Below are positions 1-64,000 of a stretch of 64,000 nt of DNA, piece after piece (positions within the stretch are counted from its first letter, which is position 1; every line of letters begins with the position of its first letter). Position numbers and translations under genes: made by a program. The DNA is from a virus (lineage: Duplodnaviria; Heunggongvirae; Uroviricota; Caudoviricetes). The DNA lies in the IMG/VR virus record IMGVR_UViG_2529292906_000009, positions 1-64,000 of that record; one strand, given 5' to 3'. Under the pieces are notes generated by a model that worked only from the letters and a program-made list of their open reading frames with translations, was not told where the DNA came from and did not search any database.

Positions 1-11
1 TACGAAGTTAT
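1..11. other. loxP: partial loxP recombination site (last 11 nt of the right arm; rest lies before window start)
   Basis: Window begins TACGAAGTTAT, matching the 3' end of the 34-bp P1 loxP site; position next to coi-c1 fits the P1 map. Confidence 0.5.
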
Positions 12-54
12 TAGGTCTGAAGAGGAGTTTACGTCCAGCTGCGCATAAAAATCA

Positions 55-71
55 AGAATTATTAGAGCAAT
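55..71 (-). promoter_or_regulatory. C1 repressor operator (15/17 match to ATTGCTCTAATAAATTT, reverse orientation)
   Basis: agaattattagagcaat read directly; matches the recalled asymmetric P1 C1 operator consensus. Confidence 0.6.
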
Positions 72-130
72 AAATTTTGAGAGAAAAATCCCACTCCACC
101 AGCCAAAAACTGGATTGTTTTTCATAGTTG

Positions 131-157
131 TTTGACAATTGCTCTAATAAATTATAG
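131..157 (+). promoter_or_regulatory. C1 operator (16/17, 137-153) overlapping a sigma70-like promoter (-35 TTGACA 131-136, -10 TATAGT 152-157) reading toward coi-c1
   Basis: ATTGCTCTAATAAATTA sits between the -35 and -10 hexamers; arrangement as in the P1 immC autoregulated promoter region. Confidence 0.6.
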
Positions 158-392
158 TTTTGCCGCCGTTTCGTAATACGACTTTGGATTCACTATTTAA
201 TGTGTCTTCAGCGTTGTAGAGCGGCTCAGAAGGAAATGAGCAAACAGGGAAACCTTATACAACGGCATTACAGCTATGCATTGCTCATCTTACACACAGC
301 GCAATGTTGTTAGATTACCCCAGCATGGATCATGGGTGAAACAGTAGGTCAGAGCTTCAGGCTCTGTGTTGTCAATACAGTGAGGCATAATT

Positions 393-602
393 ATGGCTTT
401 CATTCCACCAACCATCGACGACGTTAGACATTGCTCTAACGCTTTATCTGTAGACCCCGCCGAAACCGACGCTGCCCGCGCCATTGCTGAACACTACTCA
501 AAGATATCCAATCAGGAGTACCGCATCACCCAAGACGACCTGGATGATCTCACTGACACAATCGAATATCTCATGGCCACTAACCAGCCAGACTCACAAT
601 AA
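393..602 (+). CDS. coi: Coi-like C1 inactivator (69 aa)
   Basis: 69-aa ORF directly upstream of c1 on the same strand; size and position match recalled P1 Coi. Confidence 0.55.
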   Translation: MAFIPPTIDDVRHCSNALSVDPAETDAARAIAEHYSKISNQEYRITQDDLDDLTDTIEYLMATNQPDSQ

Positions 603-712
603 ATGCACTAATAAATCTATTATTTTCGTTGGATCCTTCTATAATGGTGGCCAACAACTCCCAGTGTAATCCGCTGTGAGTTGTTGGCCATGTCAATTCT
701 GGAGGAGGATCA

Positions 713-1537
713 ATGATAAATTATGTCTACGGCGAACAACTGTACCAGGAGTTCGTCAGCTTCAGGGATCTCTTTCTAAAAAAAGCTGTTGCACGCGCCC
801 AACACGTTGATGCCGCCAGCGACGGTCGTCCTGTTCGCCCGGTTGTCGTCCTGCCGTTCAAAGAAACGGACAGCATTCAGGCTGAAATTGATAAATGGAC
901 TTTAATGGCGCGAGAACTGGAACAGTACCCAGACCTCAATATCCCAAAGACTATTTTATATCCAGTGCCTAACATCCTTCGCGGTGTGCGTAAGGTTACA
1001 ACTTATCAGACAGAAGCTGTGAACAGCGTCAACATGACCGCTGGCCGCATTATTCATCTGATTGATAAGGACATTCGCATCCAGAAAAGCGCGGGGATCA
1101 ATGAGCACAGTGCGAAATACATAGAGAACCTGGAAGCAACAAAAGAGCTAATGAAGCAGTACCCGGAGGATGAAAAATTCCGTATGCGTGTACACGGCTT
1201 TAGCGAAACAATGCTGCGCGTCCATTACATTTCCAGTAGCCCTAACTACAATGATGGTAAATCAGTTAGTTACCATGTGCCGCTGTGTGGTGTGTTTATC
1301 TGCGATGAAACTCTCCGTGATGGAATCATCATCAACGGTGAATTCGAAAAAGCAAAATTTAGCCTTTATGACTCTATAGAACCGATCATCTGCGACCGCT
1401 GGCCGCAGGCAAAAATATATCGCCTGGCAGATATTGAAAATGTAAAAAACAAATTGCCATCACTCGCGAAGAGAAAAAGGTCAAATCAGCCGCATCAGTT
1501 ACGCGCAGCCGTAAAACTAAGAAGGGGCAGCCAGTAA
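713..1537 (+). CDS. c1: C1 immunity repressor; 274-aa frame as read, probable frameshift in an A6 tract near the 3' end
   Basis: N-terminal ~245 aa recognised as P1 C1; many copies of its operator in the window; the alternative frame after 1445-1450 stays open to 1561 and gives 283 aa, the recalled C1 length. Confidence 0.75.
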   Translation: MINYVYGEQLYQEFVSFRDLFLKKAVARAQHVDAASDGRPVRPVVVLPFKETDSIQAEIDKWTLMARELEQYPDLNIPKTILYPVPNILRGVRKVTTYQTEAVNSVNMTAGRIIHLIDKDIRIQKSAGINEHSAKYIENLEATKELMKQYPEDEKFRMRVHGFSETMLRVHYISSSPNYNDGKSVSYHVPLCGVFICDETLRDGIIINGEFEKAKFSLYDSIEPIICDRWPQAKIYRLADIENVKNKLPSLAKRKRSNQPHQLRAAVKLRRGSQ

Positions 1538-1587
1538 ACGACAACCCCGAAAGCGCGCAATAGTTTCTATCCGGCATGGTCAATGAG

Positions 1588-3072
1588 TTATTCATTAAGC
1601 CATGCCAGAGCTTCATCAACCTGCGCTTCGTCTTCGACGCTAAGCACTTCATCCTGGGGAACATAATCCGCCAGCATAGCGAAACAATATGTATCCCAAT
1701 GGTCTGGTGAGTGCAGGTTGAGTTTTTTCTTCATATCCTCCTTACTCATCACCTTCCATTGACCTGCGGAGTTAATCCCTACAGGGATTTTCGACGCTTC
1801 CTCAATAGTTTCATTACCCTTATCCAGTCTCATACGACCAGATTTTACGGCCTCTGCGGCTTGAACGTTGGCATAAGCACGTTTATCAAAGTACAGGCTC
1901 TTATCTTCACGGCTATGCATCTTTTTACCCCAGCGTATACGCTGTACGGTAATACCATAATACTCGTACATCAGATCCGCCGTTGCTTTACCCAGCCCAT
2001 CGCCGTCTATCGCTATGGTGATATTTGGGAATCGCTCAGGATTACATTCTGCGAAAATTTTGGCGGCAAGCTGCGTTTCTGTAACGTCTGTGTATTCCAG
2101 CATTCGATAGTTGATTACACGGCGTTTATTTCTCTGGCCGGACACCATCATGATATTGATAACGGACTTATCCCGTCCCGTACCACCAGCAACGTCCACA
2201 CATGCAAGCCAGCCCCATCCTTTGGCAATCTTGACTTTCCGCCGCGTCGCACGTTCAACCTCATCACGTCCAAGAAGGAAGCCATCCTGTGATTTAGGGA
2301 ATAGTCCGCGTACCTTAATCATGTACATAGGGTTATCACGCCCGCCGTACTCCGCCAGCTTCATTTTGATAAATGCTGGCGTTACCAGCGGTGATTCCTC
2401 ACTGTTAAGCGTGATCGCCGTATAAACGCCATCAGGGTTACCAGGACGCTTGGCCAGTTTATGGTGAGTATCGTAGAAATAGCCGCTTGGGCGTGTAGGC
2501 TGTGACAGTAATAAGATGCGGTTATCCTGTCCGGTAAGAGCACCGGTGATGATACCGAAAGCTCTATCACTGACACCGGAGGCTTCATCGATAATATACA
2601 GAAGATGATCTGCGTGTTCACCGGCGAGAGCTTCTTCACTTCCCAGACGAAAGCCCTTCGGTACTACAGTCCATACACCTTTACCAGTAACCTCATAGAA
2701 AGCGGTTTCTGTCAGAACAAAATAATCAGCAAGCCATGGAAAACGGCTGGTGGCAGTAGCCCAGTTTATCTTGATGTACTTGAATATACCGGTCATTACC
2801 TGCTGAATTTTGTTCGCAACGATAATGGCGCGGGCACCGGGATACATGATTATGAACAACATGATCATGATAGAAGTCATGTCTGATTTCCCGGTACCGT
2901 GACCAGACGAAACAGATGTCTTGCTACCCTGTTCCTGCACAGACTCAATAATCAGATCCTGCTGCCAGGTAGGTGTTTTGCCGAACAAAACATCAGCGGC
3001 AGCAATCCAGTCATAACGATATAGCGCCACCAGCTCGCGCCAACGTGGATCCGTTACGCAACTTCTGGCCAT
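1588..3072 (-). CDS. pacB: terminase large subunit (494 aa)
   Basis: Terminase large-subunit fold recognised; start overlaps pacA stop; size equals recalled P1 PacB. Confidence 0.85.
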
Positions 3073-4265
3073 TAATCATCATCCCCGTATAGCTTGCGGG
3101 TAACTTCTTCGTCTTCCTCCTCGTCTTCGTCCAGGTCTTGTTCCAGCCATGGGTCGTTTGATACACCTTCAGTATCAACATCTCCATAACCGCCTGTATC
3201 AACGATATCGGCGATTTCTTCCCTACGCTGCTCAATCCACAATGCGGCATCGGCGCGGCGGTTGGCGGCCCGTTCTCGCGCAACTTTGTCCAGATCTTCA
3301 AGAGAAGGGCCACCGACGGCTGTTTGCCTTTCCTCATCATCGGTATTGGTCTTAGGAGCACGCAGATCGGCTTTGATTTGCTCCAGCATCAGGGGCGGCA
3401 CTTTTCCGCCATGCGCCTCGATGAATTCAGCTGCTTCCAGCACTGACCAGTTATTTTCACGCTTTCGTTCGTATGCCAGCTTAACAATGCCAGCTTGCCC
3501 CATAGATAAAGCGTGCTTTTCCGCCTCCCGGCTTTCTTTTCGATAGTTATTCCGGATGCTGTAAATGGTGTTGATCAGGCTGCTTATCTGCGCGGAACAG
3601 CTGTTTAGCATGCTCGCGATACGATATTCAGGCGGAGTCCCTTCATCATCGTCTTTTTGCTGATCGCGCATTTCCTGCACCAGACGAATACACGTATCCC
3701 TGGCGTTCTCCAGCATAAGGAGATGAGAAAGAGACTTTTCCAGAAGAGTGGTTTCCAGAACATCGGCCCCGGACCGACGCAACATAGCGCGCGCGGCCTT
3801 CCGCGCTTCAACGTTATCTATCAGGTAATCGCCAGCTTCGAATTCAAAGCGTTCACCATCATCATCCAGGGTGTCGCGTTCCAGGCGATCACGTAAGGTC
3901 CGGTGGGCGCGGGTGATCACGTCATGATCATCAGAACGATCATTTATGCGCTTATTTTGGCGCTTCGCATTCTCGACTGCGGCACTGACAACGGCATTAA
4001 CCCTTTGTTTTTCCGCTATTTCAGCCGCAATGTGATCACCTGCATGTTGATCATTAGAGTGATCAATGATCATGCTTTTTAGTGGCTTCCTGACTGGCTT
4101 ATTTGGCTTGCGGCTGTCCGCTGTCCTGGTGTCTTCTTTGAAGGCACGGAGATAACGACGTGCAGTATTAGGGTTAAGATTAAACTCGGCGGCATACTGT
4201 GCGATGGTGTAACCACCATCTCGCGCCAGGCGAGCAAAATTCTTCTTGTGATCGTCCCAGGTCAC
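3072..4265 (-). CDS. pacA: terminase small subunit / pac recognition protein (397 aa)
   Basis: 397-aa ORF with acidic C-terminus upstream of pacB; contains the GATC-rich pac site in its 5' third. Confidence 0.8.
3880..4075. promoter_or_regulatory. pac: pac packaging site: two clusters of four GATC-containing TGATCA-type hexamers
   Basis: GATC at about 3888, 3915, 3926, 3938 and at 4033, 4049, 4060, 4068 inside pacA; matches the known Dam-methylation-regulated P1 pac architecture. Confidence 0.6.
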
Positions 4266-4350
4266 TTATGCTTCCTTTCGTAAAAACTCTTTTTGACGCG
4301 AGGGTAACGAAAGTCACATGTCAAAAGGCCCGGAACGGGCAAGCAATCAA

Positions 4351-4803
4351 TCAGATACGTGCGGATGTGGCATTACCGTAATGACGGTGCTGACGGGCCA
4401 CCTTATTGAAAAGTTGACGCGCCATTACCCAAGGCTGGTGCTCCCGGCGTTCCTTTTCGTCCTGCGTCATATAGAGTTCGTTCTGGAGTTTTTCATCAAA
4501 CCGGCGCGGAGCGCGGCTACGGCGAAAGAATTCAGGATTCAGAGAGTGGATCTGAAATCTACGTGGGCGTGTACTGTCATCAATCAAAACAGACGAATAC
4601 TTAGACACAGCGATAGCCTTTAAGCGCAGATAAACATCGCGCTTATCGACATCCAGATGCGGGTATTCCTTTTCAAGAATTGCTGCGAGTTCTTTCGCTG
4701 ATAGAAGAGATTTAGTGCGGATCATGTAATCCGCAATCTCGTACGATGTTATTCGTGAGTGATTTATTTCCATGAAGTGGCGTCCCTGCCAGTTAAGTAA
4801 CAT
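4351..4803 (-). CDS. lpa: late promoter activator-like protein (start may be the internal Met at 4773)
   Basis: About 140-150-aa ORF immediately upstream of pacA with a C1 operator just upstream; positional match to P1 lpa. Confidence 0.5.
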   Translation of the reverse strand: MLLNWQGRHFMEINHSRITSYEIADYMIRTKSLLSAKELAAILEKEYPHLDVDKRDVYLRLKAIAVSKYSSVLIDDSTRPRRFQIHSLNPEFFRRSRAPRRFDEKLQNELYMTQDEKERREHQPWVMARQLFNKVARQHRHYGNATSARI

Positions 4804-4873: not shown

Positions 4874-4890
4874 CAATACATTAGAGCAAT
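4874..4890 (-). promoter_or_regulatory. C1 operator (14/17) upstream of the lpa-pacAB transcription unit
   Basis: caatacattagagcaat read directly. Confidence 0.5.
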
Positions 4891-4891
4891 T

Positions 4892-5935
4892 TTATCTAAC
4901 GCTCGACGAGTGACTTGTGATAGCGCCGACTCCAAGCGCGTAATCAAAGAACAATCGTTGATGCATCGCCAGCCTACCGTGCGTCTTCTCCCAATTATCG
5001 CGGTCACGCTCAATATCACGCTGGCATGACTGGCACAGAGGAATAGCATAAATGTCATGCGCGCATAATCGACTATGACGAACGATATAAGGCGTAATGT
5101 GAGCGCCAGCTCCCGCAGCTCCACAGCCACAGCATGGACGGGAAGCCACAAAGTCCATGTACTCGGGCAATTTTAGCGATTGAAGTTTTGGTATTTTGAA
5201 ATGCGCCATACCTGGGTCGGAGTCAACATCCACAGGGCATACTTTTGCACGCATCGGCGCGGCGCGTTCTTCCATCATCTGAACATATGCTGTAGCGCGA
5301 TCGTCATACGGGCGAATATCCGCCTCTTTCAGAGGTCCGCTATCCTGCGGAGTAGCCTTCATCTTATTTATTGATATGCGGCAGACTTCTTCCGGCATCA
5401 GGTGCATCATGTTGCGCATGAAAGCCCACCAGCACAGCTCCTGAATACTTAAATCATGGCTATTTGAAAGGCCCATTTCCTGACGGGCGACATCCAGTAT
5501 CCAGTTAACGCGATTATTGTGCAGCGTTTCTTTCAGCTCATTAAAACCACGCATCCGGTAATGGTTATCGTGATGCCAGCACAACAACACCGCGCTATTG
5601 TCTCGTTCAGCGTGGACAATATGGTTGTCACACCAACTACGATCTGCGGCCTGGCATTGACCCTCTTTCCTACGCAACCACGCCACCAGCGCGTCAATTC
5701 CACCAATACGGCGAAACAGTTCATCGCTGTTAAAAAACGGCTGCAACGCCTCATTTGTTGCCATGGTTTGCTCGGTAACAACGAGGCCGTCTTCCATGTG
5801 CTCGATTAACTCACGCGGCACCGGCTCCATGATAAATTTACGGCCAGCCTCCACCAGCTTTCTGACCTCCTGATCCACTTTGAACGTGGCGAGGCCAAGC
5901 TCTTTCTGTACAAAGGGAGTAATTACGGCTTTCAC
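4892..5935 (-). CDS. hypothetical protein with Cys-rich C-terminal region (pdcB position)
   Basis: 347-aa ORF between doc and lpa; clustered Cys/His near the C-terminus; name only by synteny with P1. Confidence 0.5.
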
Positions 5936-5962
5936 ATCACACCTTTAATCACTGATTGGGCT

Positions 5963-6142
5963 TTATCTGCTGCCCGGCATTCTCTGTTTAAGCACAACCA
6001 TTTCCTGACGGCATAACACAGCAATAGCGGTCCTGACTCCAATTTGCTTACCAACCAGGTATTGCTTTACCTTGCGGCGACTCACGCCATCAAGAAGCAT
6101 CTTTAACGCTTCACGGGACAATTTGTTGTATTTGCGTGCCAT
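5963..6142 (-). CDS. small basic protein (pdcA position)
   Basis: About 59-aa ORF just downstream of doc; start chosen at the internal Met. Confidence 0.35.
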   Translation of the reverse strand: MARKYNKLSREALKMLLDGVSRRKVKQYLVGKQIGVRTAIAVLCRQEMVVLKQRMPGSR

Positions 6143-6146
6143 TAAT

Positions 6147-6527
6147 CTACTCCGCAGAACCATACAATCTACGTAACGTGTCGGCGACAGAAGATACAGA
6201 TATCTCGCCAGTCGCAGCGCCTACAGTAAGGTCTGCCAGTTCAGGTGAATCAAATACCTGCACCCCGTTACGGCGTAGAAATAGCAGCGCACTGTTTAGC
6301 GCGGTACGCTTATTGGCATCATTGAATATATGCCCTCTCGCTGTAGCCACCAGGTAGGTGGCGGAGACTTCGAAAAGGTCGGTGATCTCTTCGTAGGCAA
6401 CTCTGGCCTGAACTCTCCCGATAATGGCCTCTGCCCTACCCGGATCTGACATTCCCGGCAGGCCGCCGTAGCGGCTTATATTCGCATCATGAAGCGCAAT
6501 AAGTTCTTCCGGTGATATATGCCTCAT
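6147..6527 (-). CDS. doc: Doc toxin (Fic/Doc family), 126 aa
   Basis: Sequence recognised as P1 Doc (death on curing); coupled to phd. Confidence 0.85.
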
Positions 6528-6748
6528 TATCGGTTAACCAGTTCCTTGTTGGTGGAGTCCAGGGTGTCAAACAGGGATGCAAATTCAGCATCCAGCGCCG
6601 CTTTTTTGTAGGCTTCGAAAGTAGCCTTGCTGACAATTACTGCTGGCTCACGGCCTCTGCGGGTGATTTCAACCTCTTCCCCGGCTTCAACATTGTTGAG
6701 CACTTCAGAAAGGTTGCCACGCGCGGTACGGAAGTTAATGGATTGCAT
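6527..6748 (-). CDS. phd: Phd antitoxin (Phd/YefM family), 73 aa from the second Met
   Basis: [16 protein letters not shown]... recognised as P1 Phd; stop overlaps doc start. Confidence 0.85.
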
Positions 6749-6820
6749 AAACACCTCGTGTACTCGTTATGTGTACACAATTATAAACTTCACAGGCATA
6801 AAGCACCAGCACTTTGCAGC

Positions 6821-7210
6821 TTAAATAACCGGACAATCATCAAATTCCCCACTTCGGGCATCATTGATGACATGAGTGATCACACCAAAAACAGCATTAC
6901 TGCCCGTGTATCCATCGTCATCTACTGGTAACGCCTCTTTCTTCCCGGTGCTTAAATCCTCCAGGTGCTGGCGCGGATACTTCCTGTATCTCTTTATGCG
7001 ATATTCACCCTCCATAGCGCACACAAGCAGAGAACCATCAACCGGAGTAAGCGAGGAATCAACCACCAGCAAAGCACCCTGCAATATTCCCTCACGGTGA
7101 TGGCTATCAGCTGCCCGCATGAAGTAGGTTGCTGATGGATGCCTGATTAGTTGCTGATCAAGAGAAATTCGGCTTTCAACATAATCCGCCGCAGGAGAAG
7201 GGAAGCCCAT
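6821..7210 (-). CDS. humD: UmuD'-like S24 peptidase-fold protein lacking the N-terminal autocleavage arm
   Basis: Aligns to E. coli UmuD from the post-cleavage Gly onward (GFPSPAADY...); catalytic Ser and Lys positions conserved; LexA box 20 bp upstream. Confidence 0.8.
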   Translation of the reverse strand: MGFPSPAADYVESRISLDQQLIRHPSATYFMRAADSHHREGILQGALLVVDSSLTPVDGSLLVCAMEGEYRIKRYRKYPRQHLEDLSTGKKEALPVDDDGYTGSNAVFGVITHVINDARSGEFDDCPVI

Positions 7211-7229
7211 AGCGTTTTCACCTCAATAA

Positions 7230-7249
7230 TACTGTTCATTTATACAGTA
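7230..7249. promoter_or_regulatory. LexA (SOS) box TACTGTTCATTTATACAGTA
   Basis: CTGT-N8-ACAG palindrome, close match to the E. coli LexA box consensus; in the divergent intergenic region between humD and 7385..8326. Confidence 0.7.
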
Positions 7250-7384: not shown

Positions 7385-7969
7385 ATGCCTAATCGCATTC
7401 CTCTCGCTCCTGTATTGCCCAAAAATTTTGACTGCACTCCTAACGAGAAACGCTCTAAAGCTCAGCTGGACGCCTGGTGGGACCATCCATATGGGGTTAC
7501 ACAACCTGACGGGAAAATTGTAGTTTATTGTCTGAATGGTGGGGCGTGGGACCGTCCATCCGTGCTTTGTTTGGCAGATAACTATGATGAAGCCTGTGAA
7601 CTTGCCGAAAGACAGCAGGCAAGCTGGGTAAAAACACGGTCTGAACCGACATTCATGTTTTCAAAAGAACCGCCATTTATACTGGCGAGGATGCCGCAGC
7701 GACCGGATCATCAACAAGAAATTGTTGCTGAATTTTCCTCTAGGGATGAGATGAATCTCTTCTCATTAAAGCAGGAAGAAAGGGATCGCGTCGAAGTGTC
7801 TCCAACTCTCGACCACAACCGGATGAACCTGGCCCAACTCGCCTGGTACAGCAAAGAATTAGAGATGTCTATTGCCCGACTTGAAAACGAAAAAGCCGCT
7901 ATCCAAGCCCAGCATGAAGTAGTTCTGAACCGGATTAGAGAAATGCAAAACGATAACAGGGGATTTTGA
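7385..7969 (+). CDS. hypothetical protein (194 aa), first gene of a two-gene module downstream of the LexA box
   Basis: Long ORF starting 135 bp from the LexA box; stop overlaps the next start (TGAATG); no recognisable domain. Confidence 0.5.
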   Translation: MPNRIPLAPVLPKNFDCTPNEKRSKAQLDAWWDHPYGVTQPDGKIVVYCLNGGAWDRPSVLCLADNYDEACELAERQQASWVKTRSEPTFMFSKEPPFILARMPQRPDHQQEIVAEFSSRDEMNLFSLKQEERDRVEVSPTLDHNRMNLAQLAWYSKELEMSIARLENEKAAIQAQHEVVLNRIREMQNDNRGF

Positions 7970-8326
7970 ATGGCTAAAATCGAGTACCATCGCGATCGCG
8001 GTAATTACCTGGAAATATACGATCATGAATCTCTTAACGATATCAACGATGCGTTATATGAATACTGTGAAAAAACGAGCATCACAGATGCACCTGATGC
8101 ATTTGTCGAGCTACCGGTATATCTCCGCGACATCTATGCAATACGAACACCGCCCGTATCGGTGATCCACATTGGCTATGTCCGCCTGTCCATCGAAGAA
8201 GATGAAGATCGTTATATCGTGCGCCACTATACATTGGACAGAAAAGAACTTCCTAATGAATGGAACATGAGTAATTTCTACAACGGTGAATATGGCTTAA
8301 AATCCACTAATAATTTACGGTCATAA
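7970..8326 (+). CDS. hypothetical protein (118 aa), coupled to 7385..7969
   Basis: ORF starts on the stop codon of the upstream gene; no recognisable domain. Confidence 0.5.
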   Translation: MAKIEYHRDRGNYLEIYDHESLNDINDALYEYCEKTSITDAPDAFVELPVYLRDIYAIRTPPVSVIHIGYVRLSIEEDEDRYIVRHYTLDRKELPNEWNMSNFYNGEYGLKSTNNLRS

Positions 8327-9188
8327 TCTATACAGGCATGTATAACAACAACGAGCCTATTAGCTGTCAACAACGTTATTTTCTCAAATAAGAAAAAGCA
8401 GAAAACAAATTGTTTAAGGTCACAAATTGTGGCCTTGATGGAGGAGGGAGGCTTATTGGCTATGGCTAAAAATCAAATTAGACACTTCATGTTGCTGTAG
8501 CTCATCAAGATCCGAGGCCACAAAACCTTTTCCGAAAAACTTCACAAGTAACTCACTAGCCGCATCATTGTCACCTATTACACGAAAGTCATACGGCAAC
8601 GTCGCAAGTTGACGATGTAATCCTGCTGAGAAAGTCGAATCTAACAGCGACCAGAATTCCCACCGCAGGATAATACTCGCCTCTTAATACTGTATATATG
8701 TTGTTACGATATGTTTTTCTGTCTCTAAAAAAAGATGTTAATAGAATGCTAACCATTGAAGGGGATAAAAATATACAATTCCAACAAACGTTATTTTTAA
8801 CAATTTTTTTCTTTGCGTTGACTTTCCCGGACACCTTGTCTGACCGAAGGTGCGCGAAAGCCACTTTTTCCTTCCTGAGTTATCCACAAAGTTATGCACT
8901 TGCAAGAGGGCCATTTTCTACATATTGTGGTGGCTAACAGATGAAATGAATGTAGATTAATTGAAGATAAGGAGAAAATTTGAGATGCAATCATGACGTT
9001 AATAGATAGGGTCTGCATTACAGACCCCATCCGCATCAAGGAATTAGCCGTTCCCTGATGTTGTTCCGAAAACATGTGCCGTAAGCTCACGTTAACGACT
9101 TTCTTTCACCGAATCCAACTATATAGGGGTTGGGTTTCTACGTCAACGTGAGCAAGTGCTCCTTTACATTTGACAAGGAACCACCTTA

Positions 9189-9326
9189 ATGACTGCTTTT
9201 TTTCAGTTCCTGAGTGCATTTTTAGATGCGCCTGTTATTAGCCAGATTCTGGCGATCATCCTCATCATCGTTTTGATTTTGCTTTTAAGGTCAGTAAAAA
9301 ATGGAATTATGCACTGGCTTACTTAA
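9189..9326 (+). CDS. small hydrophobic peptide (45 aa), possible membrane peptide
   Basis: MTAFFQFLSAFLDAPVISQILAIILIIVLILLLRSVKNGIMHWLT; AGGA 9 nt upstream; lies in an AT-rich region without long ORFs. Confidence 0.25.
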   Translation: MTAFFQFLSAFLDAPVISQILAIILIIVLILLLRSVKNGIMHWLT

Positions 9327-9400
9327 TGTTCAGTGAAACATTAAAATCTCCTTGATGTGGAAACAATCATTTTCTGTATGTGCTGGTGGGTACCTGTAGT

Positions 9401-9757
9401 TCAGCTTTCGTTGGCATTTAACTTCGTCTTTGCTTTCTCCACCAGCAACTTCCAGATGCCTATTTCATTAGCAGCCGCCTTGATGGCGGCATAAAAAGCA
9501 TCTTGCTGATCGTAACGCTGAATCTGTTTTTTCAGTTTTGCCTCCACCAATTTAATTTCATTACGTGCTTTCTGAAGCCGAAGCGCCGCCCGGTTACGTC
9601 TGTTCTTGTATAGCGCGTTAATCTCTGACAATTGCTTTAATTTACCAGCCTGACTGCGGATTATCGCCTCTCTGACTTCTGCCGTGCGTCTCATCTGATC
9701 TCTTAAGAGTTCACCGTTTTCGATAATTCTTTCAAGGTGTTTGATGTGATCTGCAAC
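9401..9757 (-). CDS. hypothetical protein, 5' end separated from its native start by IS2
   Basis: Frame continues from native ATG-AGA-GTT at 11099-11091 across the IS2 insertion; the first 9 codons of the tracked ORF come from the IS2 end. Confidence 0.45.
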   Translation of the reverse strand, partial: VADHIKHLERIIENGELLRDQMRRTAEVREAIIRSQAGKLKQLSEINALYKNRRNRAALRLQKARNEIKLVEAKLKKQIQRYDQQDAFYAAIKAAANEIGIWKLLVEKAKTKLNANES

Positions 9758-9768
9758 TGGATTTGCCC

Positions 9769-54184: not shown

Positions 54185-54189
54185 TTTTG

Positions 54190-55236
54190 TTAACCTATTG
54201 CTACTGGTTTTAACAAACCAGCATCAAGTAGCTTGCGAGTTAACCACTGCTGGCCTTTACCCGTTAATTGGGGCGTCAGCCGTATCTGGTAGCCATTTTC
54301 ATCATCCAGCACCACTTCTTTCACCGTGAAATACCCGGCGTTGATGTACTGTTGGCGCGGTACGTTTTTGCGCGCACCAAAAGCCATGAGAATGCCGTTC
54401 TGGCGCAACCATGAGAAAAGGGCGTTTTGCTTAAGTCCAACGACCTTTGCAAAGTTCCCGATCAGGATTCCATTAGCCACTGATACCCGGTCGGCAAAAT
54501 CGACTTTAGGGGCTGCGGCCACCAGCTGTTGTTCCAGCTGCATTTTCTGTTCTGCCAACTCGGCAGCCAGGCGTAGAGCTTCTGGTAATGTTTGGGGGAT
54601 CGATGGGGCAGGGGAGTTTGCCTGCTGCAATTCTTCCAGTTTGTCGATCAGCGAACGGCGGACCGCTTTCGATTCGCGAGCAGCAACGCGCAGGGCTTGT
54701 TTGTATGTCATTACTATAACTACCTGATCCGCTCCACCTTTTTTCTTATCCATAGGGGTTACGAAGATTTCGTAACCCTCCCCATCAAGCTCATCCTTAA
54801 CTCTGGCAATGAAATCATTGTTGCGAACTGGTTTTTCGCTACATAATTTCCGTGCCTCATTGACCATCTTTAACAGTGTCAGGCTGTCGATTGTGTCTCC
54901 GGTGTTGGGGATAATATTCACGGCTGGTGCTGGCGTAGCTGACGTAACAGGTGCTGGTTTTTCAACATTCAAATTATTACCGGTCATTCTATGTGCCTCC
55001 TTTCTCATTTCTGCTGCCACTGTTGCGTAACGTAGACGTCCTTGTTCAATCAAATAATCCCTGATCTCGGCTATCAGTAGCCTGTTGATCACAGCCTTAT
55101 CTGTTCGGGTATAAAAACGCCTGGTTATCATGAAATAGTTAGCAATTGCGCCGGGGATCTCCCGTGTCGGCATACAGGCAGTATGCAAAGCGATCGCTTC
55201 GGCTATTTCATTACGGGTGACGAGAGGTTTTTTCAT
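54190..55236 (-). CDS. ant1: antirepressor (ANT C-terminal domain)
   Basis: C-terminal half shares the ANT/KilA-C domain with the kilA C-fragment; preceded by the icd-like ORF. Confidence 0.65.
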   Translation of the reverse strand: MKKPLVTRNEIAEAIALHTACMPTREIPGAIANYFMITRRFYTRTDKAVINRLLIAEIRDYLIEQGRLRYATVAAEMRKEAHRMTGNNLNVEKPAPVTSATPAPAVNIIPNTGDTIDSLTLLKMVNEARKLCSEKPVRNNDFIARVKDELDGEGYEIFVTPMDKKKGGADQVVIVMTYKQALRVAARESKAVRRSLIDKLEELQQANSPAPSIPQTLPEALRLAAELAEQKMQLEQQLVAAAPKVDFADRVSVANGILIGNFAKVVGLKQNALFSWLRQNGILMAFGARKNVPRQQYINAGYFTVKEVVLDDENGYQIRLTPQLTGKGQQWLTRKLLDAGLLKPVAIG

Positions 55237-55454
55237 AAAACCCCCTGAACGTCGGCAGAGAAGGGGAGGTTCCAGTAACTAAGTGAATTGCGCGAGTTAG
55301 TTGAAAAACGGGCAGTAAAAATGCAGGGGCCATCAGGCAATTGGGAGCGTGCTTCGTCTTCTGTTGCTGCGATAACGAAGTGATAGTGGTGTTTTTTACA
55401 GGAATAGAAACGCCAGATGAATTCTTGGCGTGCGCAAGGATTGGCATTAACCAT
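55233..55454 (-). CDS. icd: Icd-like cell-division inhibitor (73 aa) overlapping ant start
   Basis: 73-aa ORF overlapping ant start, as P1 icd; size matches. Confidence 0.5.
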   Translation of the reverse strand: MVNANPCARQEFIWRFYSCKKHHYHFVIAATEDEARSQLPDGPCIFTARFSTNSRNSLSYWNLPFSADVQGVL

Positions 55455-55479
55455 AGTTACGGCCTCGTAAGTTGATAAA

Positions 55480-55760
55480 CAACCTGCGACCCGCTGTCAA
55501 ACAGGTGGCAGGACGTGACAGGGTTGACAGACTGGCACTTACGAAACCAGCAGGCCGAAGCCTCCCCATCACGCCCCACCATAATTCGGGCGTAACGTGG
55601 TTTTACGGACACAAAAATACCGCAATATCGGAAATGTGCGGTTGTCCGCGTAAGTATTCAGGCTGTCAAACCTGGTCGCAGAATTTGCTGCGACGGCGGA
55701 ACTATAAGCCTGAACGATTAAAAGGTCAATATGATGCGAAAAGATAGCATTCGTGACTTA
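55480..55760 (-). ncRNA. c4: region expected to encode the c4 antisense RNA and its target repeats (boundaries not resolved)
   Basis: Lies between the operator and icd as in P1 immI; repeated TTGACAG-type motifs and their complements. Confidence 0.3.
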
Positions 55761-55767: not shown

Positions 55768-55784
55768 AAATTTATTAGAGCATT
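55768..55784 (-). promoter_or_regulatory. C1 operator (16/17) upstream of the immI operon
   Basis: aaatttattagagcatt read directly. Confidence 0.6.
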
Positions 55785-55882
55785 GTTTGTTTAATAAATA
55801 CACAAATGGATCTAATAACCTCTTTTTTTAAAGGCGAAAATATGTACCCTAAATGAGTTATAAGGCAGGTGAGGTTATAATG

Positions 55883-56527
55883 AGAAAACTATTACTACCG
55901 TTATTATTTATGGCTGGGACTGTTAATGCAGCATCAAGCGTAAAGGAGATTTGTACCGATTATACGAAATACCTTGGGCACGTTTACGGCTTTGCTGTCA
56001 GTCAAGACGAATCCATGCGCAAGAAGTTACTGTCAGATATGAAACGCCTTAAACTTTCTGAAGCGATGGTGCAGCAAGAACTGTATAAAGTCGCAACCAA
56101 CGAAAATGCTAAATATCAATATTCTCGCCTGTTAAATCCCGACGCAAACGAGATCAATCGAAGCTCTTTCGATTATATGGTAAAGGCATGCGAAACCGCT
56201 CCTGATTTTGCTATCCCTAGCTGGGGTGTGCTGGTGGCGAGCAATGCCGTTAATAAAGAAGACGTTGGAAGAAATGGCATTGATTCAATCAGAAACGCCC
56301 CGGGAATGCGCCATCAAAACGTGCAGGGTACGCTTGAAGAGCGGGCCAGGGGGCCGGGTACAAACTCCCCAATGGGAAACCTCTCACCAGAGGAATTGCA
56401 AGAGTATAACCAACGGATGGAGCAGTATGAGAAAGCGGCACGCGAACAAATGGAACAACAAAAGAACGGCTCACTTAATACCTTCCAGCAAGGTTTAAAA
56501 GCGCTTAATTTACCCTATGAATGGTAA
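55883..56527 (+). CDS. secreted protein (signal peptide) carrying a GMRxxxVQGTLEERARG motif shared with Sit
   Basis: MRKLLLPLLFMAGTVNA signal peptide; 17-aa motif nearly identical to one in the sit product. Confidence 0.5.
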   Translation, partial: RKLLLPLLFMAGTVNAASSVKEICTDYTKYLGHVYGFAVSQDESMRKKLLSDMKRLKLSEAMVQQELYKVATNENAKYQYSRLLNPDANEINRSSFDYMVKACETAPDFAIPSWGVLVASNAVNKEDVGRNGIDSIRNAPGMRHQNVQGTLEERARGPGTNSPMGNLSPEELQEYNQRMEQYEKAAREQMEQQKNGSLNTFQQGLKALNLPYEW

Positions 56528-56588
56528 ATATATTATGGATAACCAATTAAAATATTGATAATCGTTAATATCCAAAGGAGATAAATTA

Positions 56589-57065
56589 ATGCGCATCAAA
56601 CGATTTTTTCTAATTCTTGCTTTGCTTACTCCATTTTCATCAATGGCAAATGTAAGCAAATGGTCAACCGGCGAGACTCATGGTGTTCGTTCTTATGCTG
56701 TTTCCAGCAAAGATAATTATACGCTTACATTTGAGTGCGATGTTGGATTTAATAATACGGATCCCAATCAAGTAGGAACACGACTACTCACTCTCATGAA
56801 AACAGAACCTGGCGGTGAGTCATTTGATGCTAAAAAAGAACAAATAACGCTGAAAGTTGGTGATGATGAATATCCTATCAGTTCTATCGGTTCCTCTGTG
56901 GGTGATAGTTACTGGTATGGTTTTTGGTCAGATACCCCTGATATGGAAGTTAAAACATTCGATGCATACGTAGACGGAAAAAAAATCGCAACATTTACGC
57001 TACGTAAGGCCGCAGAGCTTTTCAACGCGGCACCTGAAGATGGCTGCCTGAAGCGCGCAAAATGA
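56589..57065 (+). CDS. secreted protein (signal peptide)
   Basis: MRIKRFFLILALLTPFSSMA signal peptide. Confidence 0.5.
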   Translation: MRIKRFFLILALLTPFSSMANVSKWSTGETHGVRSYAVSSKDNYTLTFECDVGFNNTDPNQVGTRLLTLMKTEPGGESFDAKKEQITLKVGDDEYPISSIGSSVGDSYWYGFWSDTPDMEVKTFDAYVDGKKIATFTLRKAAELFNAAPEDGCLKRAK

Positions 57066-57099
57066 CCTGTCACAAATGACTACTCGTAGAATCGGTTAA

Positions 57100-59289: not shown

Positions 59290-62200
59290 ATGGAAAGAAA
59301 AAACGCCAACATTGACGATGTGATAAGGACGGTTGAAACCGCCAGCGCAAAAGAGCTGGAAGAGCTTGCAGGTATTCGGGAAGCCGTTGAAGATTTGAAA
59401 GGGGGGCGAGTTGCTACAGTTGATCCTGTCTCTCGCAGTGTGTCGGCATTAAATCGCACAATCGAAAATTCCCGGCCAGACTTTGTGGCCAATGCGCCAT
59501 CAGTGGACCCTATTGTTGAGGCAATGAAACGGCTTAATTTAGGGGACGTTTCTCGTGTAGTTCAGGAGGATGTTGCTCTACAGGAACCGCAGGCCAAATC
59601 AACTACGCGAAAGGGTAAAAAACGACGCAAGAAGGCTATAACAGAAGATGTAAAGGCGCAACGGACCGAAGCAGCCGAACACGCTCGCGAAATGTTCGGT
59701 CAAAAAGGCGGTGCGCAAAAAAGCCAAAACCAACGCGATGCGCGTGGTCGTTTTATTGGAAAGTCAGGGAGTAAGGCCGCAGCGGAAGATGCCCGTGCTG
59801 AACGTGCTGAAAAGGCCTGGCGCAAAGAGGATGATGAGCGTCTAAATGCTGAATCAGGTTTATTAAAAAAACTGTCAAAAGTAGCTGAAGGCATAGGTAA
59901 CCCTTCAGAGACTCGTGCCGTCGATGCGTTAGGTTATGCCGTTGCTGGTCCATTGTGGGCAGCAGGGAAGGAGCTTGGCGGGATATCAAAAGAAGTTGGT
60001 GGATCGCTTAATGGTGCCAGAAAGTCTATTGCCGATGTGATTCGTGGCAATGACGATAACAGCCGTAGAAAAGGTTTTTTTAGGCGTAAATCGCAAAATA
60101 GTGCCGATGTCGTTCAGGTTAACACCCAAAAACGGACGGTTCAGGAACTTCAGGAGCAGACCAGCGAAATTAAAGAGGGCAATGACAAGATTCTCAGCGC
60201 CCTTGATCAGATAGCCAAAAACACCGGGAAAAAGAAGGGCGGCTTGCTGTCCAAACTATTTAGCCTGTTAGGGAAGGGGGACGGTGGCGTCGCGTCGTTG
60301 TTAATGGGGCGTGGCATGCTGAAAAAAGCTGGAGCACTCGCTTTTGGCGCTCTGGGGGCAAAGAAACTTGTAGGGATGCTACGCGGTGGTGGCAAGAAGG
60401 CTCTCGCCCATGAAGGCGGAGATTTGGCTGCCCGGGCAGCAGGTAAACTTGGATTAAAGGCCGTTGGTAAAGGAGCGTTACGCGCAATTCCCCTAGTCGG
60501 CACAGTGGCTGGAGGTATTTATGATGCGGTAACCGGTTGGAATGATACAGAAGCGCAACGTCGAGCGTTTGGGCTTAAATCAGGACAAGATCCATCATTC
60601 CAGCAAAAAGCCGCTTATACGTTAGCTAATGTTCTTGATATGGGGGGACTGGTATCTGGTATTAGCAGCGCCATTGGTGAGGTTCTCAAATCACTTGGAT
60701 TTGAGGATATCGGCAATATGTTGCAATCATTTTCGACGGAAAGTATTGCCCTGGCCATTGATAGTGGGATTACCAACTTAGAAACTTATATTTCTAACCT
60801 TGGCGACACCATTTCTACCAAGTTCGATGATTACACAGCAAAGATTGGTGATGCTGTTTCAGCATGGTTTAGCGATACATCTAATAAGCTGCTTGAAAAG
60901 CTGGATGCCATCAAAGACTTCTTTACTGTCGATAACCTGAAACAGGTTTTCAGTGATGCAATTGATAGTGCAATTGATTTCATTAAGAACCCAGGGAAAC
61001 ACATTAAAGAGGCGGCTGGTAATATTTGGGATGGGGTTAAAAATTTACCCGGTAAAGCATTAGATGCAGCGGTTGATGCCGTTAAAAATACCCCTGCGGC
61101 AATGATTGTATCAAAAATACCCAATCCGATCGGCGAGGCTAATGCGAAAGAAATCACTCCAGAGTTAAAAGCTCCGGTTAATAGCCACCAGGAGACGTCT
61201 AATTCTAAAACTGAATCCGATGCCAAACAGAGTAATATTGCTACCCGCGTGATAAATGCGGCACTGGACACGGCGAAAGATAGCAATAAAACAGTAAAAC
61301 AAACTGCCAATCAGATTATCAATGCAAATGCCGTAGAAACGGGCAATAGCGCGTTGCAGAAAATTGATAAAGCTATTGGTCAAAATAGCTCGTCATCATC
61401 GTCGCTTAATACCACTGGCACCAGGAATGACATTCAGAAAGCTGCGGATACCTACAACAATGGCAACTTGGATGTAAAAGTCGGAAGTCTTGGCGCTGAA
61501 GGTAAGGCTAATCTCGATAAGTTGGCTCCGTATTTTGCCGAACTAGAGAATAAATACGGTCTTCCAGAAGGCACTCTTTACGCGATTGCTGCAACTGAAT
61601 CTGGTGGTAATCCGTATGCAAAATCCCAAACCGGTGCTCTGGGGATGTTTCAGTTCACGGGGATTGCTCGTGAAGAGACTGGCTTAGCTGAAGGTGAATC
61701 GTTTGATCCTGTGAAATCGGCAGAAGCTGCGGCTCTTCTCATGAGCAAATATCTGAAGCAAGCCAATGGAGACTTAAACGAGGCCATCACTGCATATAAT
61801 GCTGGGTTTGGCACTATCAATAAGTGGAAAAAAGGCACAGGTGACTTATCGAAAGAAAACCGTGAGTACGCGATCAAGGTCAATACTCATCGTGCTCGCT
61901 ATTTAGGTGGTGAAATCTATACACCTGGAGCAGGAGCACAGGGTGGGGCGCAATATGGAGTGAGGGGACCACTGCCTGATAACGCTGTTATCGATCAGTC
62001 TACTGGCCTGGCGTTTACCCCTGGTGATAGCCCGTTTGAGAAAGGCGGTCTGGTAGACAAAATTGGCAATGCTGTTGGCGTTAACGATCTGGTCAACAAA
62101 TTCATGAATGGCCGGGGTATGCGTCGGGAAGTCGTTCAGGGAACGCTCGAAGAACGTGCACGAGGGAGGGGGACCGCAACAGCTGCTGGCAATGTGTATG

Positions 62201-62682
62201 TTGATACTCCGATGCCAGTCGAAGAGGCGCGTCCGGTGGCCAGCAACTCAAGTTACTTTGACCAACTCGGCGCACAAATGGGGATTGATGGACTATTCGA
62301 TAAACTCCGCAACTCGCCGGGGATGCGGAAAAATAATGCGCCTGAACCAGCCTCCACGTCCCAGGTGACGACTGCCGCCAACGATTTGCAGCAACCAACC
62401 GGTCGTATGCAGATAGACGGGCAGGTTATTAGTGACCTTGGTGGTTCCGGTGCCAAGCCGACAATGCAGTTGGCTGATAATACCGTTTCACTTGATGGTG
62501 AAACGAAGCGGCTGTTTGCGCAGATGACCTCATTGCTTGCCAGGATTGAGGAGCACACCAAAGACTCGGCGAAAGGCCAGGGAACTGTCGTAAAGGTCAG
62601 CACGCCTCAGCCGGGCGTTATGCGCACGGTACCACTGTCAATTGATGATCCGTTGATGAATGACTACGCGAGAGTTGATTGA
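59290..62682 (+). CDS. sit: structural injection transglycosylase (soluble lytic transglycosylase domain)
   Basis: 1130-aa ORF with SLT motifs ESGGNPYA...GALGMFQF...AYNAG; same size class as recalled P1 Sit. Confidence 0.8.
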   Translation: MERKNANIDDVIRTVETASAKELEELAGIREAVEDLKGGRVATVDPVSRSVSALNRTIENSRPDFVANAPSVDPIVEAMKRLNLGDVSRVVQEDVALQEPQAKSTTRKGKKRRKKAITEDVKAQRTEAAEHAREMFGQKGGAQKSQNQRDARGRFIGKSGSKAAAEDARAERAEKAWRKEDDERLNAESGLLKKLSKVAEGIGNPSETRAVDALGYAVAGPLWAAGKELGGISKEVGGSLNGARKSIADVIRGNDDNSRRKGFFRRKSQNSADVVQVNTQKRTVQELQEQTSEIKEGNDKILSALDQIAKNTGKKKGGLLSKLFSLLGKGDGGVASLLMGRGMLKKAGALAFGALGAKKLVGMLRGGGKKALAHEGGDLAARAAGKLGLKAVGKGALRAIPLVGTVAGGIYDAVTGWNDTEAQRRAFGLKSGQDPSFQQKAAYTLANVLDMGGLVSGISSAIGEVLKSLGFEDIGNMLQSFSTESIALAIDSGITNLETYISNLGDTISTKFDDYTAKIGDAVSAWFSDTSNKLLEKLDAIKDFFTVDNLKQVFSDAIDSAIDFIKNPGKHIKEAAGNIWDGVKNLPGKALDAAVDAVKNTPAAMIVSKIPNPIGEANAKEITPELKAPVNSHQETSNSKTESDAKQSNIATRVINAALDTAKDSNKTVKQTANQIINANAVETGNSALQKIDKAIGQNSSSSSSLNTTGTRNDIQKAADTYNNGNLDVKVGSLGAEGKANLDKLAPYFAELENKYGLPEGTLYAIAATESGGNPYAKSQTGALGMFQFTGIAREETGLAEGESFDPVKSAEAAALLMSKYLKQANGDLNEAITAYNAGFGTINKWKKGTGDLSKENREYAIKVNTHRARYLGGEIYTPGAGAQGGAQYGVRGPLPDNAVIDQSTGLAFTPGDSPFEKGGLVDKIGNAVGVNDLVNKFMNGRGMRREVVQGTLEERARGRGTATAAGNVYVDTPMPVEEARPVASNSSYFDQLGAQMGIDGLFDKLRNSPGMRKNNAPEPASTSQVTTAANDLQQPTGRMQIDGQVISDLGGSGAKPTMQLADNTVSLDGETKRLFAQMTSLLARIEEHTKDSAKGQGTVVKVSTPQPGVMRTVPLSIDDPLMNDYARVD

Positions 62683-63038
62683 TGGCCAACAATAACGAAA
62701 TTGATCCTTTACTGACGCTGGAGTTATCCGGCGTAAAAACGTATGAGTCCCAGGAGGAGGCCTGGGGCGCTCGTTTATATGAGTGGCTGAACACTTATCA
62801 GGGTGAGGTATACGGAGATCCGTCATGGGGCAATGTTTTGCCGCAGTTTAAACACGAACCGACCAACTTGTCGTATGTTCAAATTGCGGTTGAGGCAATG
62901 CTGTTGCAAAAACTGACGGTAGATTTACCTGACATACCGATTTCTGGCTTGTCAGTAGCCGAGGGAGATGCTTTTGATAAGTTGAAAATATCCATTCGTA
63001 TCAGGGATATAACTATCACACAGGACGTGGTGCTATGA
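62679..63038 (+). CDS. hypothetical virion protein (119 aa)
   Basis: Start overlaps sit stop; stop overlaps next start. Confidence 0.45.
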   Translation: MMANNNEIDPLLTLELSGVKTYESQEEAWGARLYEWLNTYQGEVYGDPSWGNVLPQFKHEPTNLSYVQIAVEAMLLQKLTVDLPDIPISGLSVAEGDAFDKLKISIRIRDITITQDVVL

Positions 63039-64000
63039 GTAAAACAACACCGACTAAAGACAGTATTCGTGCAGAGTTTGAAGAGCTTGTCGAGAAAGAT
63101 TCATTCTGGTCGAAGTTTGTCGGCTCTCAATTTGTCTCGATGCTGACATTGTTTATTACCCAGATTGTCTACAGGTGCTTTCAGTATGCCGATGCGGCGC
63201 TGGCTGAAGGCTTTATATCGACCGCGACGCGGCGTTCCTCTATCCTGGCTGCGGCAGAAACGAACAGTTATGTTGGTACCAAGCCAACACCGTCATCGGG
63301 GATGATTGAGATCACCGCCACAAGTGAAGATGCCCCAGCGGTAATCCCCAAAAACATGCCTTTAATATCTGACGACCAGTACCCTTACATGACTATGGAT
63401 GTATGCAGGTTGGTTGACGGCACCGGTACGGTAGAAGTGGCACAGTTGGAAATCCAGGAGGTGACATATACCGTTACGGCAGCCAAAGAATTTCTGGAAG
63501 TCGTGTTATCAAAGGCTCTTACTGCTGTCTGCTATAAGCTGGAAGTATTCGTGACGACCGATGGGAAGACCACGCAGTGGTCTTCCAGCACTATGTTCCG
63601 GTTAGCCGGTAGTAAAAGCCAGGTCTACGTTGAGTTTTATAAACCATCCGAGCAGTTGGGGGTTCGATTCGGCGATGGGCTAATTGGGCAAATACCGCCA
63701 GAAGGTTCGACAATTACGCTTAAGGTATGGTGCACCAACGGCGATATAACCCTGGTTGCTGGCCAAAACCTGACGCCTGTCGATTCTGCGGCTGATTTAG
63801 CTAATTTGATTTCAGTTAAGACAACGACACCTATAACCGCAGGTACCGATGCTGAAACAACGGAGATCACACGTAACCGTGCACAATATTACCTTGCCTA
63901 TGATGATCAGGTCGTATGGGGCGGGGACTATACGTATTTTCTGGTTCGTAACATCCCGGGGCTGTCCTGGGTAAAGGCATGGGGCGAAGGCCAGCAAGAG
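63035..64000 (+). CDS. putative baseplate protein, 3'-partial (runs off window end)
   Basis: Open frame from ATG at 63035 to the window end; ATGA overlap with the upstream gene. Confidence 0.45.
   Translation, partial: MSKTTPTKDSIRAEFEELVEKDSFWSKFVGSQFVSMLTLFITQIVYRCFQYADAALAEGFISTATRRSSILAAAETNSYVGTKPTPSSGMIEITATSEDAPAVIPKNMPLISDDQYPYMTMDVCRLVDGTGTVEVAQLEIQEVTYTVTAAKEFLEVVLSKALTAVCYKLEVFVTTDGKTTQWSSSTMFRLAGSKSQVYVEFYKPSEQLGVRFGDGLIGQIPPEGSTITLKVWCTNGDITLVAGQNLTPVDSAADLANLISVKTTTPITAGTDAETTEITRNRAQYYLAYDDQVVWGGDYTYFLVRNIPGLSWVKAWGEGQQE

Follow-up and report, generated by a model that had tools for sequence, protein, structure and literature searches.

The stretch of DNA analysed here (the window) is 64,000 nt long, corresponds to positions 1 to 64,000 of the IMG/VR virus record IMGVR_UViG_2529292906_000009, and carries the lox-to-bplA part of a phage-plasmid of the P1/P7 family. 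A first-pass annotation, made from the letters alone, had described it as a large part of a mosaic P1-like phage-plasmid. Database searches bore this out: the core genes best matched P1, P7 and P1-like plasmids rather than any non-P1 lineage, and every P1 element that had been named was found, namely the loxP tail, coi-c1, pacAB with the pac site, phd-doc, humD, ban, dmt, hrdC, the plasmid replicon, parAB, icd/ant and sit.

Gene order and content relative to P1 and P7

Comparison of the window with the full P1 genome (NC_005856, Punavirus P1) by blastn gave blocks that run monotonically from P1 position 94794 (window position 1) to 39671 (window position 63999), all on the opposite strand. About 75–77% of the window aligned with P1, at 94–99% identity outside the divergent par block. 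By tblastn, 70 of 76 P1 proteins were recovered in the P1 order, most of them full length and 97–100% identical. No inversion, transposition or module duplication relative to P1 was found by blastn and tblastn across the window. The blocks shared with P7 (NC_050152) were likewise monotonic, with 82% of the window aligned at 97.4% identity. Whole-sequence alignment to the two phages, which the first-pass annotation had proposed as a check, thus returned a P1-like collinear mosaic and no rearrangement. In the phage collection (megablast, window in three parts) the best matches were P1, P7, SJ46, RCS47, JL22 and other P1-like phages, at 96–99% identity. The plasmid collection gave thousands of matches, the best being hundreds of non-mobilizable E. 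coli plasmids of about 95 kb. By a look-up of exact proteins the window was traced to contig AIFV01000003.1 (67,302 bp) of the draft assembly GCA_000249595.2, of which it makes up positions 1–64000; the pieces of this contig that were compared agree fully (100% identity) with window 1–4537 and 48905–55483, at equal coordinates.

Covering about 58% of a P1/P7-family phage-plasmid map, the window keeps the lox-to-bplA gene order of P1. It encodes RepA, Phd, Doc, Coi, Lpa and gp23 proteins 100% identical to those of P1, and it shares with P1 the pac site, five late promoters, the incC iterons and three tRNAs, as well as 15 identical operators among the 17 annotated for the C1 repressor. Genes 23, 22, 21, tub, sit, bplA, bplB, 26, 25, 7, 24, 6 and 5 are present and intact (bplA runs off the window end). 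It differs from P1 by a P7-type par locus, by the replacement of hot, simB, simC, rlfA, rlfB and pmgF, by a tciA of 31% identity, by a 5.5-kb block of small genes where P1 has pmgT, by another pacB allele and another immI b-site, by two insertion sequences (ISs), IS2 and IS200, and by frameshifts in c1 and repL. With P7 it shares ParA and ParB (100% identity), the parS box B hexamers, and a multi-gene block including an Ead-like gene between pap and a pmgV-like gene. Unlike the window, P7 has another immI a-site and another b-site, retains rapA/rapB (homologues of rlfAB), has its own genes at the sim position, and carries mostly other content in its pmgT-region block, to which 5–8% of window 12001–16000 aligns.

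Since the P1 gene order is kept, and since the differences lie only at known variable spots of the family and at two ISs, the window is almost certainly the lox-to-bplA part of an ordinary mosaic phage-plasmid of the P1/P7 family (Punavirus-like, IncY) with an E. coli host.

Allelic replacement at known variable regions

A mosaic map was drawn by 2-kb sliding comparison with P1, P7 and the plasmids CP122941 and CP099080. The pacB stretch was 86% identical to P1 and P7, and 99% to CP122941 and CP099080. The par stretch aligned with P7 only. The immI/sim stretch was 99.7–99.8% identical to CP099080, versus 93–94% to P1 and CP122941, and part of sit was 89% identical to CP099080, versus 97% to the others. 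No complete record with the whole combination was found in the phage, plasmid and complete E. coli genome collections, where at most 88% of any 25-kb piece, and at most 73% of positions 7500–18000, was covered. As the closest relative shifts along the window and no record holds the whole combination, the window is a recombinant of circulating family alleles, and not a rearranged genome.

The variable regions published for P1-like phage-plasmids are sim, rlf/pmgF, tci, pmgT-to-humD, and par/rep including P7-type parAB (PMC9603915, PMC6906374), and all non-P1 stretches of the window fall within them. The mosaicism is allelic replacement at these hot spots (pmgT-to-hot, tciA, rlfAB/pmgF, simBC and par), plus two IS insertions. 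P1-like E. coli plasmids in PLSDB (e.g. NZ_CP127257.1, NZ_CP069885.1 and CP099080.1) have the same architecture and hot spots, and carry near-identical single cassettes. CP099080.1, with an immI/sim stretch 99.7–100% identical to that of the window, was considered as the same element, being the sole PLSDB record 100% identical in immI, and was rejected on its other replicon, par genes and IS content.

The first of these regions extends from hot to pmgT. At 7953–8780 (plus strand) hot is replaced by a segment of 39.5% G+C with a 118-aa open reading frame (ORF; 7970–8326) belonging to phrog_5797, a family of unknown function. The remaining low-G+C interval of about 450 bp (8327–8780) runs from this replacement gene to what is left of upfO. 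Its only ORFs reaching 45 aa are two short ones on the opposite strand, and Rfam gave no match there at the gathering threshold. Remnants of upfO, upfN and upfM follow, with pmgV (8783–9784, minus strand).

At the pmgU/pmgV junction lies an element of 1330 bp (9759–11088, minus strand) with ends TGGATTTGCCCC... and ...GGGGGCCAGTCTA, an InsC-like ORF of 136 aa (10632–11042) and an InsD-like ORF of 301 aa (9769–10674). From these ends and ORFs we take it to be IS2 (IS3 family). A 5-bp target duplication, GCAAC, lies on either side of it (9754–9758 and 11089–11093). The insertion severed the first two codons of pmgV, of which residues 3–120 are kept, and the ORF now starts at a new ATG within the IS2 end, as a fusion of 127 aa (9401–9784). 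This fusion ORF is also present on a short-read contig (SRR094144) recorded in three samples.

Beyond IS2, a 225-aa gene (11096–11773, minus strand), whose C-terminal half is that of P1 PmgU, leads into a block of 5.5 kb with about 13 small genes (11472–16977, minus strand) that has no P1 counterpart and falls inside P1 pmgT. The Pfam domains in this block were DUF551 (12554–13192), Ead_Ea22 (13400–13990 and 15005–15880), DUF4752 (14718–15041) and DUF1382 (16717–16938); the DUF551 and Ead_Ea22 assignments, already made in the first-pass annotation, passed the Pfam thresholds. They had been taken there as lambdoid modules that indicate mosaicism. Patches of the block are indeed 87–97% identical in DNA to the 'ea' regions of lambdoid and Stx-converting phages, but within the family it is usual to find such a block here: P7 carries one, Ead-like gene included.

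The block ends at a gene of 201 aa (16948–17553, minus strand), a homologue of the PmgT N-terminus with 59.8% amino acid identity to P1 PmgT. The N-terminal 232 residues of P1 PmgT correspond to this gene, and its C-terminal 77 residues to an alternative frame of the 225-aa gene. Because P7 has its own Ead-bearing multi-gene block there, the short pmgT of P1 looks, at the sequence level, like the reduced state, a deletion fusion or remnant.

The second region is a cassette of mixed orientation (48946–51624) that replaces P1 pmgF-rlfB-rlfA. It contains a 210-aa ORF with a PmgF-like N-terminus (49039–49671), a DUF3892 protein (49878–50249), and an orphan ParA-like ATPase of 351 aa (50320–51375, minus strand), for which no PADLOC model matched. 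The cassette is common among plasmids: 40 PLSDB records cover at least 80% of it, 12 listed records are 98.5–100% identical over its full length, and NZ_CP080229.1 and two other records are 100% identical.

Smaller replacements were found at tciA, a divergent TerB-like allele (31659–32093, minus strand, 31% amino acid identity to P1) in a non-P1 stretch at 31629–32218, and between dbn and ban, where an additional 101-aa ORF (29356–29661, minus strand, phrog_12809), absent from P1, accounts for the non-P1 stretch at 29360–29647.

Among 20 variable-region ORFs screened, only DUF-type Pfam domains and the ParA-like ATPase were detected. Ten such ORFs compared with PHROGs could all be assigned to existing families, one of them ParA-like and the other nine without known function, and ten submitted to PADLOC gave no match. 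None of the screened variable-region ORFs gave evidence of resistance, virulence or known defence cargo.

Specificity of the immI circuit and the sim region

The immI region (minus strand) comprises OrepL (54095–54111), ant1 (54190–55236), icd (55233–55454) and Oc4 (55768–55784). The C4 antisense RNA (55501–55586, minus strand) and the a1/b1 target motif (55655–55707, minus strand) were both detected by Rfam above the gathering threshold (C4, 69.6 bits; c4-a1b1, 61.2 bits). In the window the b' sequence of C4 is CGTAAGT and both of its targets read ACTTACG, unlike the b-sites of P1 (GTTAGTG) and P7 (GATTGTG). The immI type of the window thus combines an a-site of the P1 type (TTGACAG) with a b-site (ACTTACG) of neither P1 nor P7. 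Complementarity is perfect between a' and a1/a2, and likewise between b' and b1/b2.

The immI region had 575 matches in PLSDB, and 15 P1-like elements, matches sampled from PLSDB among them, were then compared. They fell into two a-types and at least five b-types, making eight combinations, and complementarity between the RNA and both of its targets was perfect in all 15. The combination of the window was also found in CP099080 and CP042620. A scan of viral_contigs for the C4 b' region returned nothing. These comparisons would fit a two-site combinatorial antisense code for immI immunity, in which the window has a type of neither P1 nor P7, and we give this interpretation an even chance of being correct. 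If both sites must pair for repression, each a/b combination would define a separate superimmunity group, and if the code holds, the immI of the element would be heteroimmune with that of P1 as well as that of P7, as the precedent of these two phages implies.

Next to immI, at 55853–57071 (plus strand; non-P1 stretch 56020–57071), two other genes replace simB and simC, in a stretch 99.8% identical to plasmid CP099080. The ORFs concerned are one of 224 aa with a SimA-like N-terminus (55853–56527, plus strand, phrog_3933) and one of 158 aa (56589–57065, plus strand, phrog_3429). P1 SimA, of 52 aa, corresponds to the N-terminus of the 224-aa protein, and P1 simA may be the remnant of a longer gene. 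The late promoter LPsit (57074–57092) precedes pmgC, tub, pmgB, sit, pmgA and bplA, which is cut by the window end at 64000 (all on the plus strand). In sit (59290–62682, plus strand) there is an in-frame deletion of 30 nt relative to P1.

Plasmid maintenance, packaging and structural genes

The plasmid replicon, on the plus strand, begins with oriR, whose DnaA box (39616–39633) is identical to that of P1 and is followed by five GATC sites (39639–39693). Of the five incC iterons (39733–39836), four are identical to P1 and one has a one-base difference. The repA gene (39893–40753) encodes a protein 100% identical to P1 RepA, of IncY type, and the incA iteron matches (40753–41037) each have 1–3 changes from the P1 copies. 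The partition locus lies in a non-P1 stretch (41041–43417): ParA (41147–42358, plus strand) and ParB (42355–43320, plus strand) are 100% identical to the P7 proteins, versus 58% and 43% to those of P1. In parS (43365–43447, plus strand) both box B hexamers and three of the four box A heptamers are those of P7, and the spacer has diverged. LP23 (43514–43532) and gene 23 (major head protein), gene 22 (sheath), gene 21, pmgG and bplB occupy the plus strand down to 48903.

At the other side of the map, pacB (1588–3072, minus strand) is a phiW39-like allele with 88.7% amino acid identity to P1. Like pacB, pacA (3072–4265, minus strand) is full length; it contains the pac site, with seven TGATC(A/G) hexamers in a 4+3 arrangement at about 3913–4072. 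LPpac (4301–4319), the full-length late-gene activator gene lpa (4351–4803) and Olpa (4874–4890) follow on the minus strand. Four late promoters (LPpac, LPpmgL, LP23 and LPsit) match P1 exactly, while LP26 has a single-base difference. By tblastn, pdcB and pdcA were located within 4892–7247 (minus strand), an interval that also holds the Phd-Doc addiction module, with doc at 6147–6527 and phd at 6527–6748 (minus strand), both 100% identical to P1 in amino acids, and humD (6821–7210, minus strand) with its LexA box (7232–7247). On the plus strand, lxr (7385–7969) shows 93.7% amino acid identity to P1.

The accessory block, pap, pmgS, pmgR, pmgQ, ppp, pmgP, pmgO, pmgN, pmgM and pmgL (17732–23557, minus strand), is in the P1 order, with the operators OpmgT (17732–17748), OpmgRb (19824–19840), OpmgRa (19873–19889), Oppp (22591–22607) and O26 (23498–23514). 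After LP26/LPpmgL (23529–23557), the baseplate and tail genes 26, 25, 7, 24, 6 and 5 (23587–28338, plus strand) encode proteins 99–100% identical to P1. On the minus strand lie dbn (28385–29359), the helicase gene ban (29658–31028), and three tRNA genes, tRNA-Ile2(CAT) at 31309–31384, tRNA-Thr at 33021–33096 and tRNA-Asn at 33099–33174, with tciC, tciB, upl and a plp variant within 31309–33174. The bivalent operator Oban (33830–33857), dmt (33848–36112), hrdC, uhr and Odmt (37363–37379) follow on the same strand, and upfC, upfB, ppfA, mlp and upfA (37461–39574) on the plus strand.

The loxP end, c1 and the C1 operators

The window and its source contig begin inside lox, the last 11 bases of a loxP arm (positions 1–11) reading TACGAAGTTAT; cre is outside the window. 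In three other assemblies, too, contigs break off inside loxP, within a few bases of the point where the source contig does, which makes this a recurrent assembly break. In immC, the operators Oc1e (55–71), Oc1d (138–154), Oc1c (430–446), Oc1a (602–618) and Oc1b (613–629) are identical to P1, and imcA (200–313), imcB (332–427) and coi (393–602) lie on the plus strand, Coi being 100% identical to P1. The repressor gene c1 was located by tblastn at 713–1537 (plus strand). In CP122941 (15067–16403) and CP099080 (72252–73843) the interval from pacB to c1 contains a second icd-ant module, which is absent at that place in the window and in P1.

In c1, a run of seven A is contracted to six at about 1444–1450, so that the frame is altered from about codon 245 (the last 38 or so codons) and the product is 274 aa long versus 283 aa. 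At least four further contigs, from other samples, carry the same 274-aa product, among them plasmids that differ by 34 substitutions in 4.5 kb (about 0.75%). Because it is called on contigs of other samples, diverged plasmids among them, the 274-aa C1 may be a real allele.

Thirteen sites had three or fewer mismatches to the C1 operator consensus ATTGCTCTAATAAATTT, versus 0.3 expected by chance (shuffles), and all 13 are base-for-base equal to annotated P1 operators at collinear positions. The earlier count of 11 good operators was slightly low. As for the three weaker candidates, that at 22593–22609 is the Oppp of P1, whose true position is 22591–22607, and that at 51619–51635 is part of P1 Orlf, with only the left 11 bases kept, because the breakpoint of the rlf replacement falls inside the operator. 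The candidate at 49007–49023 has four mismatches and no P1 counterpart. Four sites with exactly four mismatches were seen, versus 2.2 expected at four or fewer (shuffles), so that judged by its letters alone this candidate is at chance level, neither supported nor dismissed.

The lytic replicon

All parts of the lytic replicon (PkilA, kilA, and repL with oriL) are present and 98–100% identical to P1, but kilA is split and repL has a one-base deletion. The repL gene with oriL occupies 51639–52483 (minus strand), next to the Orlf remnant. A contraction of seven T to six at about 51956–51962 divides it into ORFs of 192 aa and 89 aa, and the 192-aa product is on record for the source contig only. 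The kilA gene (minus strand) is split at codon 74 into a C-terminal part (52516–53094) and an N-terminal part (53804–54025) by IS200 (IS200/IS605 family, 709 bp, 53094–53802), which lies on the plus strand, opposite to kilA, and carries tnpA for a Y1 transposase (PF01797, 53237–53695) and the STnc490 RNA (53104–53227; Rfam, 146 bits). There is no target duplication at its junctions, and matching plasmids carry an annotated IS200C. The insertion separates repL from the PkilA promoter, and the hairpin at its end (53777–53795) is terminator-like on both strands, including the strand read from PkilA to repL.

Two further samples, unrelated and with diverged ant flanks, also have the ORF formed at the kilA::IS200 junction. 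Since it recurs in these samples, the insertion is real and heritable. An IS200 at kilA codon 74 was not confirmed in PLSDB, where two records hold most of the junction query, of which CP122941 was examined. That plasmid was rejected as sharing the insertion: its IS200C is about 380 bp away, between ant and kilA. IS200 in the window stands directly after the kilA hairpin and T-run (53063–53088), and the IS200C of CP122941 directly after another terminator-like hairpin (54152–54181), which suggests that IS200 prefers sites beside hairpins.

An element that has lost lytic replication and lives as a plasmid only would be a sub-case of an ordinary family member, and it is a possible but doubtful reading of these lesions. 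The split kilA, with a terminator-like hairpin on the PkilA-to-repL strand, speaks for it, as do the heritable nature of this insertion, the repL frameshift with its product peculiar to the source contig, the altered C-terminus of C1, and the separation of pmgV from its start codon by IS2. However, each frameshift is the loss of one base from an A/T run of seven. Among 24 long homopolymer runs common to the window and P1, three were shortened by an indel, two of them those in c1 and repL. These contractions carry the classic signature of homopolymer sequencing error, but they may be real mutations. Furthermore, PrepL as annotated in P1 (P1 50466–50494) is downstream of the insertion point (P1 about 50117) and could still express repL, kilA is dispensable for P1 lytic growth, and the window's genes for virion structure, packaging and late regulation are all intact.

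Discussion

Some points weigh against an ordinary, functional P1-family phage-plasmid. Like cre, the res/mod and dar genes, the portal and lysis genes, cin and the tail fibre genes are outside the window (the portal, tail-fibre, cin and lysis genes correspond to P1 1–39670), and neither completeness of the whole element nor plasmid circularity is visible from a partial window. With frameshifts in c1 and repL and an interrupted kilA, phage competence is not assured. Finally, the functions named here are all predicted from homology to P1 and P7.

A chimeric assembly, or a fragment of an integrated prophage, would account for a draft contig that starts inside lox, near where contigs of other assemblies end, and for the ceiling of 88% coverage of any 25-kb piece by a single complete record. 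It is very unlikely: there are no chromosomal genes in the window, and every junction between conserved and variable segments is a position of allele switch in other complete P1-like plasmids. The target duplication of IS2 is also intact, which marks IS2 as a simple insertion rather than the place where two molecules were joined.

A relative of P1 with another order of modules is hardly tenable. It goes back to the first-pass annotation alone, where the gene order was described as different from that of P1, and it is contradicted by blocks strictly monotonic with P1 and P7 and by P1 proteins found in order. The junctions thought odd are those of P1 itself. An accessory block next to the baseplate genes had been taken as foreign to P1, in which the pmgL-pmgV block does adjoin baseplate gene 26. 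Similarly, repL in P1 is followed by rlfA, rlfB, pmgF and bplB, and its neighbourhood in the window is laid out likewise, the rlf position being taken by another cassette. Least credible of all is a different lineage of phage-plasmids, for example D6-like, with some P1 modules, since D6, with which a few patches are common, covers 13% of window 1–25000 at 93.6% identity, whereas P1 covers 68–82% and P7 76–91% of two 25-kb pieces, at 97–98.5% identity.

For the ordinary P1/P7-family phage-plasmid that we favour, a way of working can be proposed, because its modules are near-identical to experimentally characterised modules of P1 and P7. As a prophage the element would replicate at low copy number from oriR by RepA with the incC and incA iterons, and would be segregated by the P7-type ParA/ParB/parS system, plasmid loss being punished by the Phd-Doc addiction module. 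The lytic genes would be held off by C1 at about 17 dispersed 17-bp operators, with the immI circuit as a backup, in which the C4 antisense RNA would block icd/ant translation. Upon induction, Lpa would switch on the late promoters, the structural genes would build a myovirus, and a cut by PacAB at the methylation-sensitive pac site would start headful packaging. The alleles of this mosaic are ones that circulate in P1-like plasmids and, for the pmgT-region block, in lambdoid prophages, and IS2 and IS200 would be recent insertions.

P1-like phage-plasmids are common in E. coli, where they make up about 5–7% of sequenced plasmids, and they are monitored as vehicles of resistance genes (PMC9603915, PMC6906374). 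Beyond correct bookkeeping, the window has little significance in itself. Two features may be of specialist interest, a possible decay of the lytic replicon (kilA::IS200, with the repL and c1 frameshifts), and a C4 specificity of neither P1 nor P7 with co-varying targets. For the family, the window is a worked example of diversification, in which a constant gene order goes with the exchange of alleles at a few hot spots and with scattered ISs.

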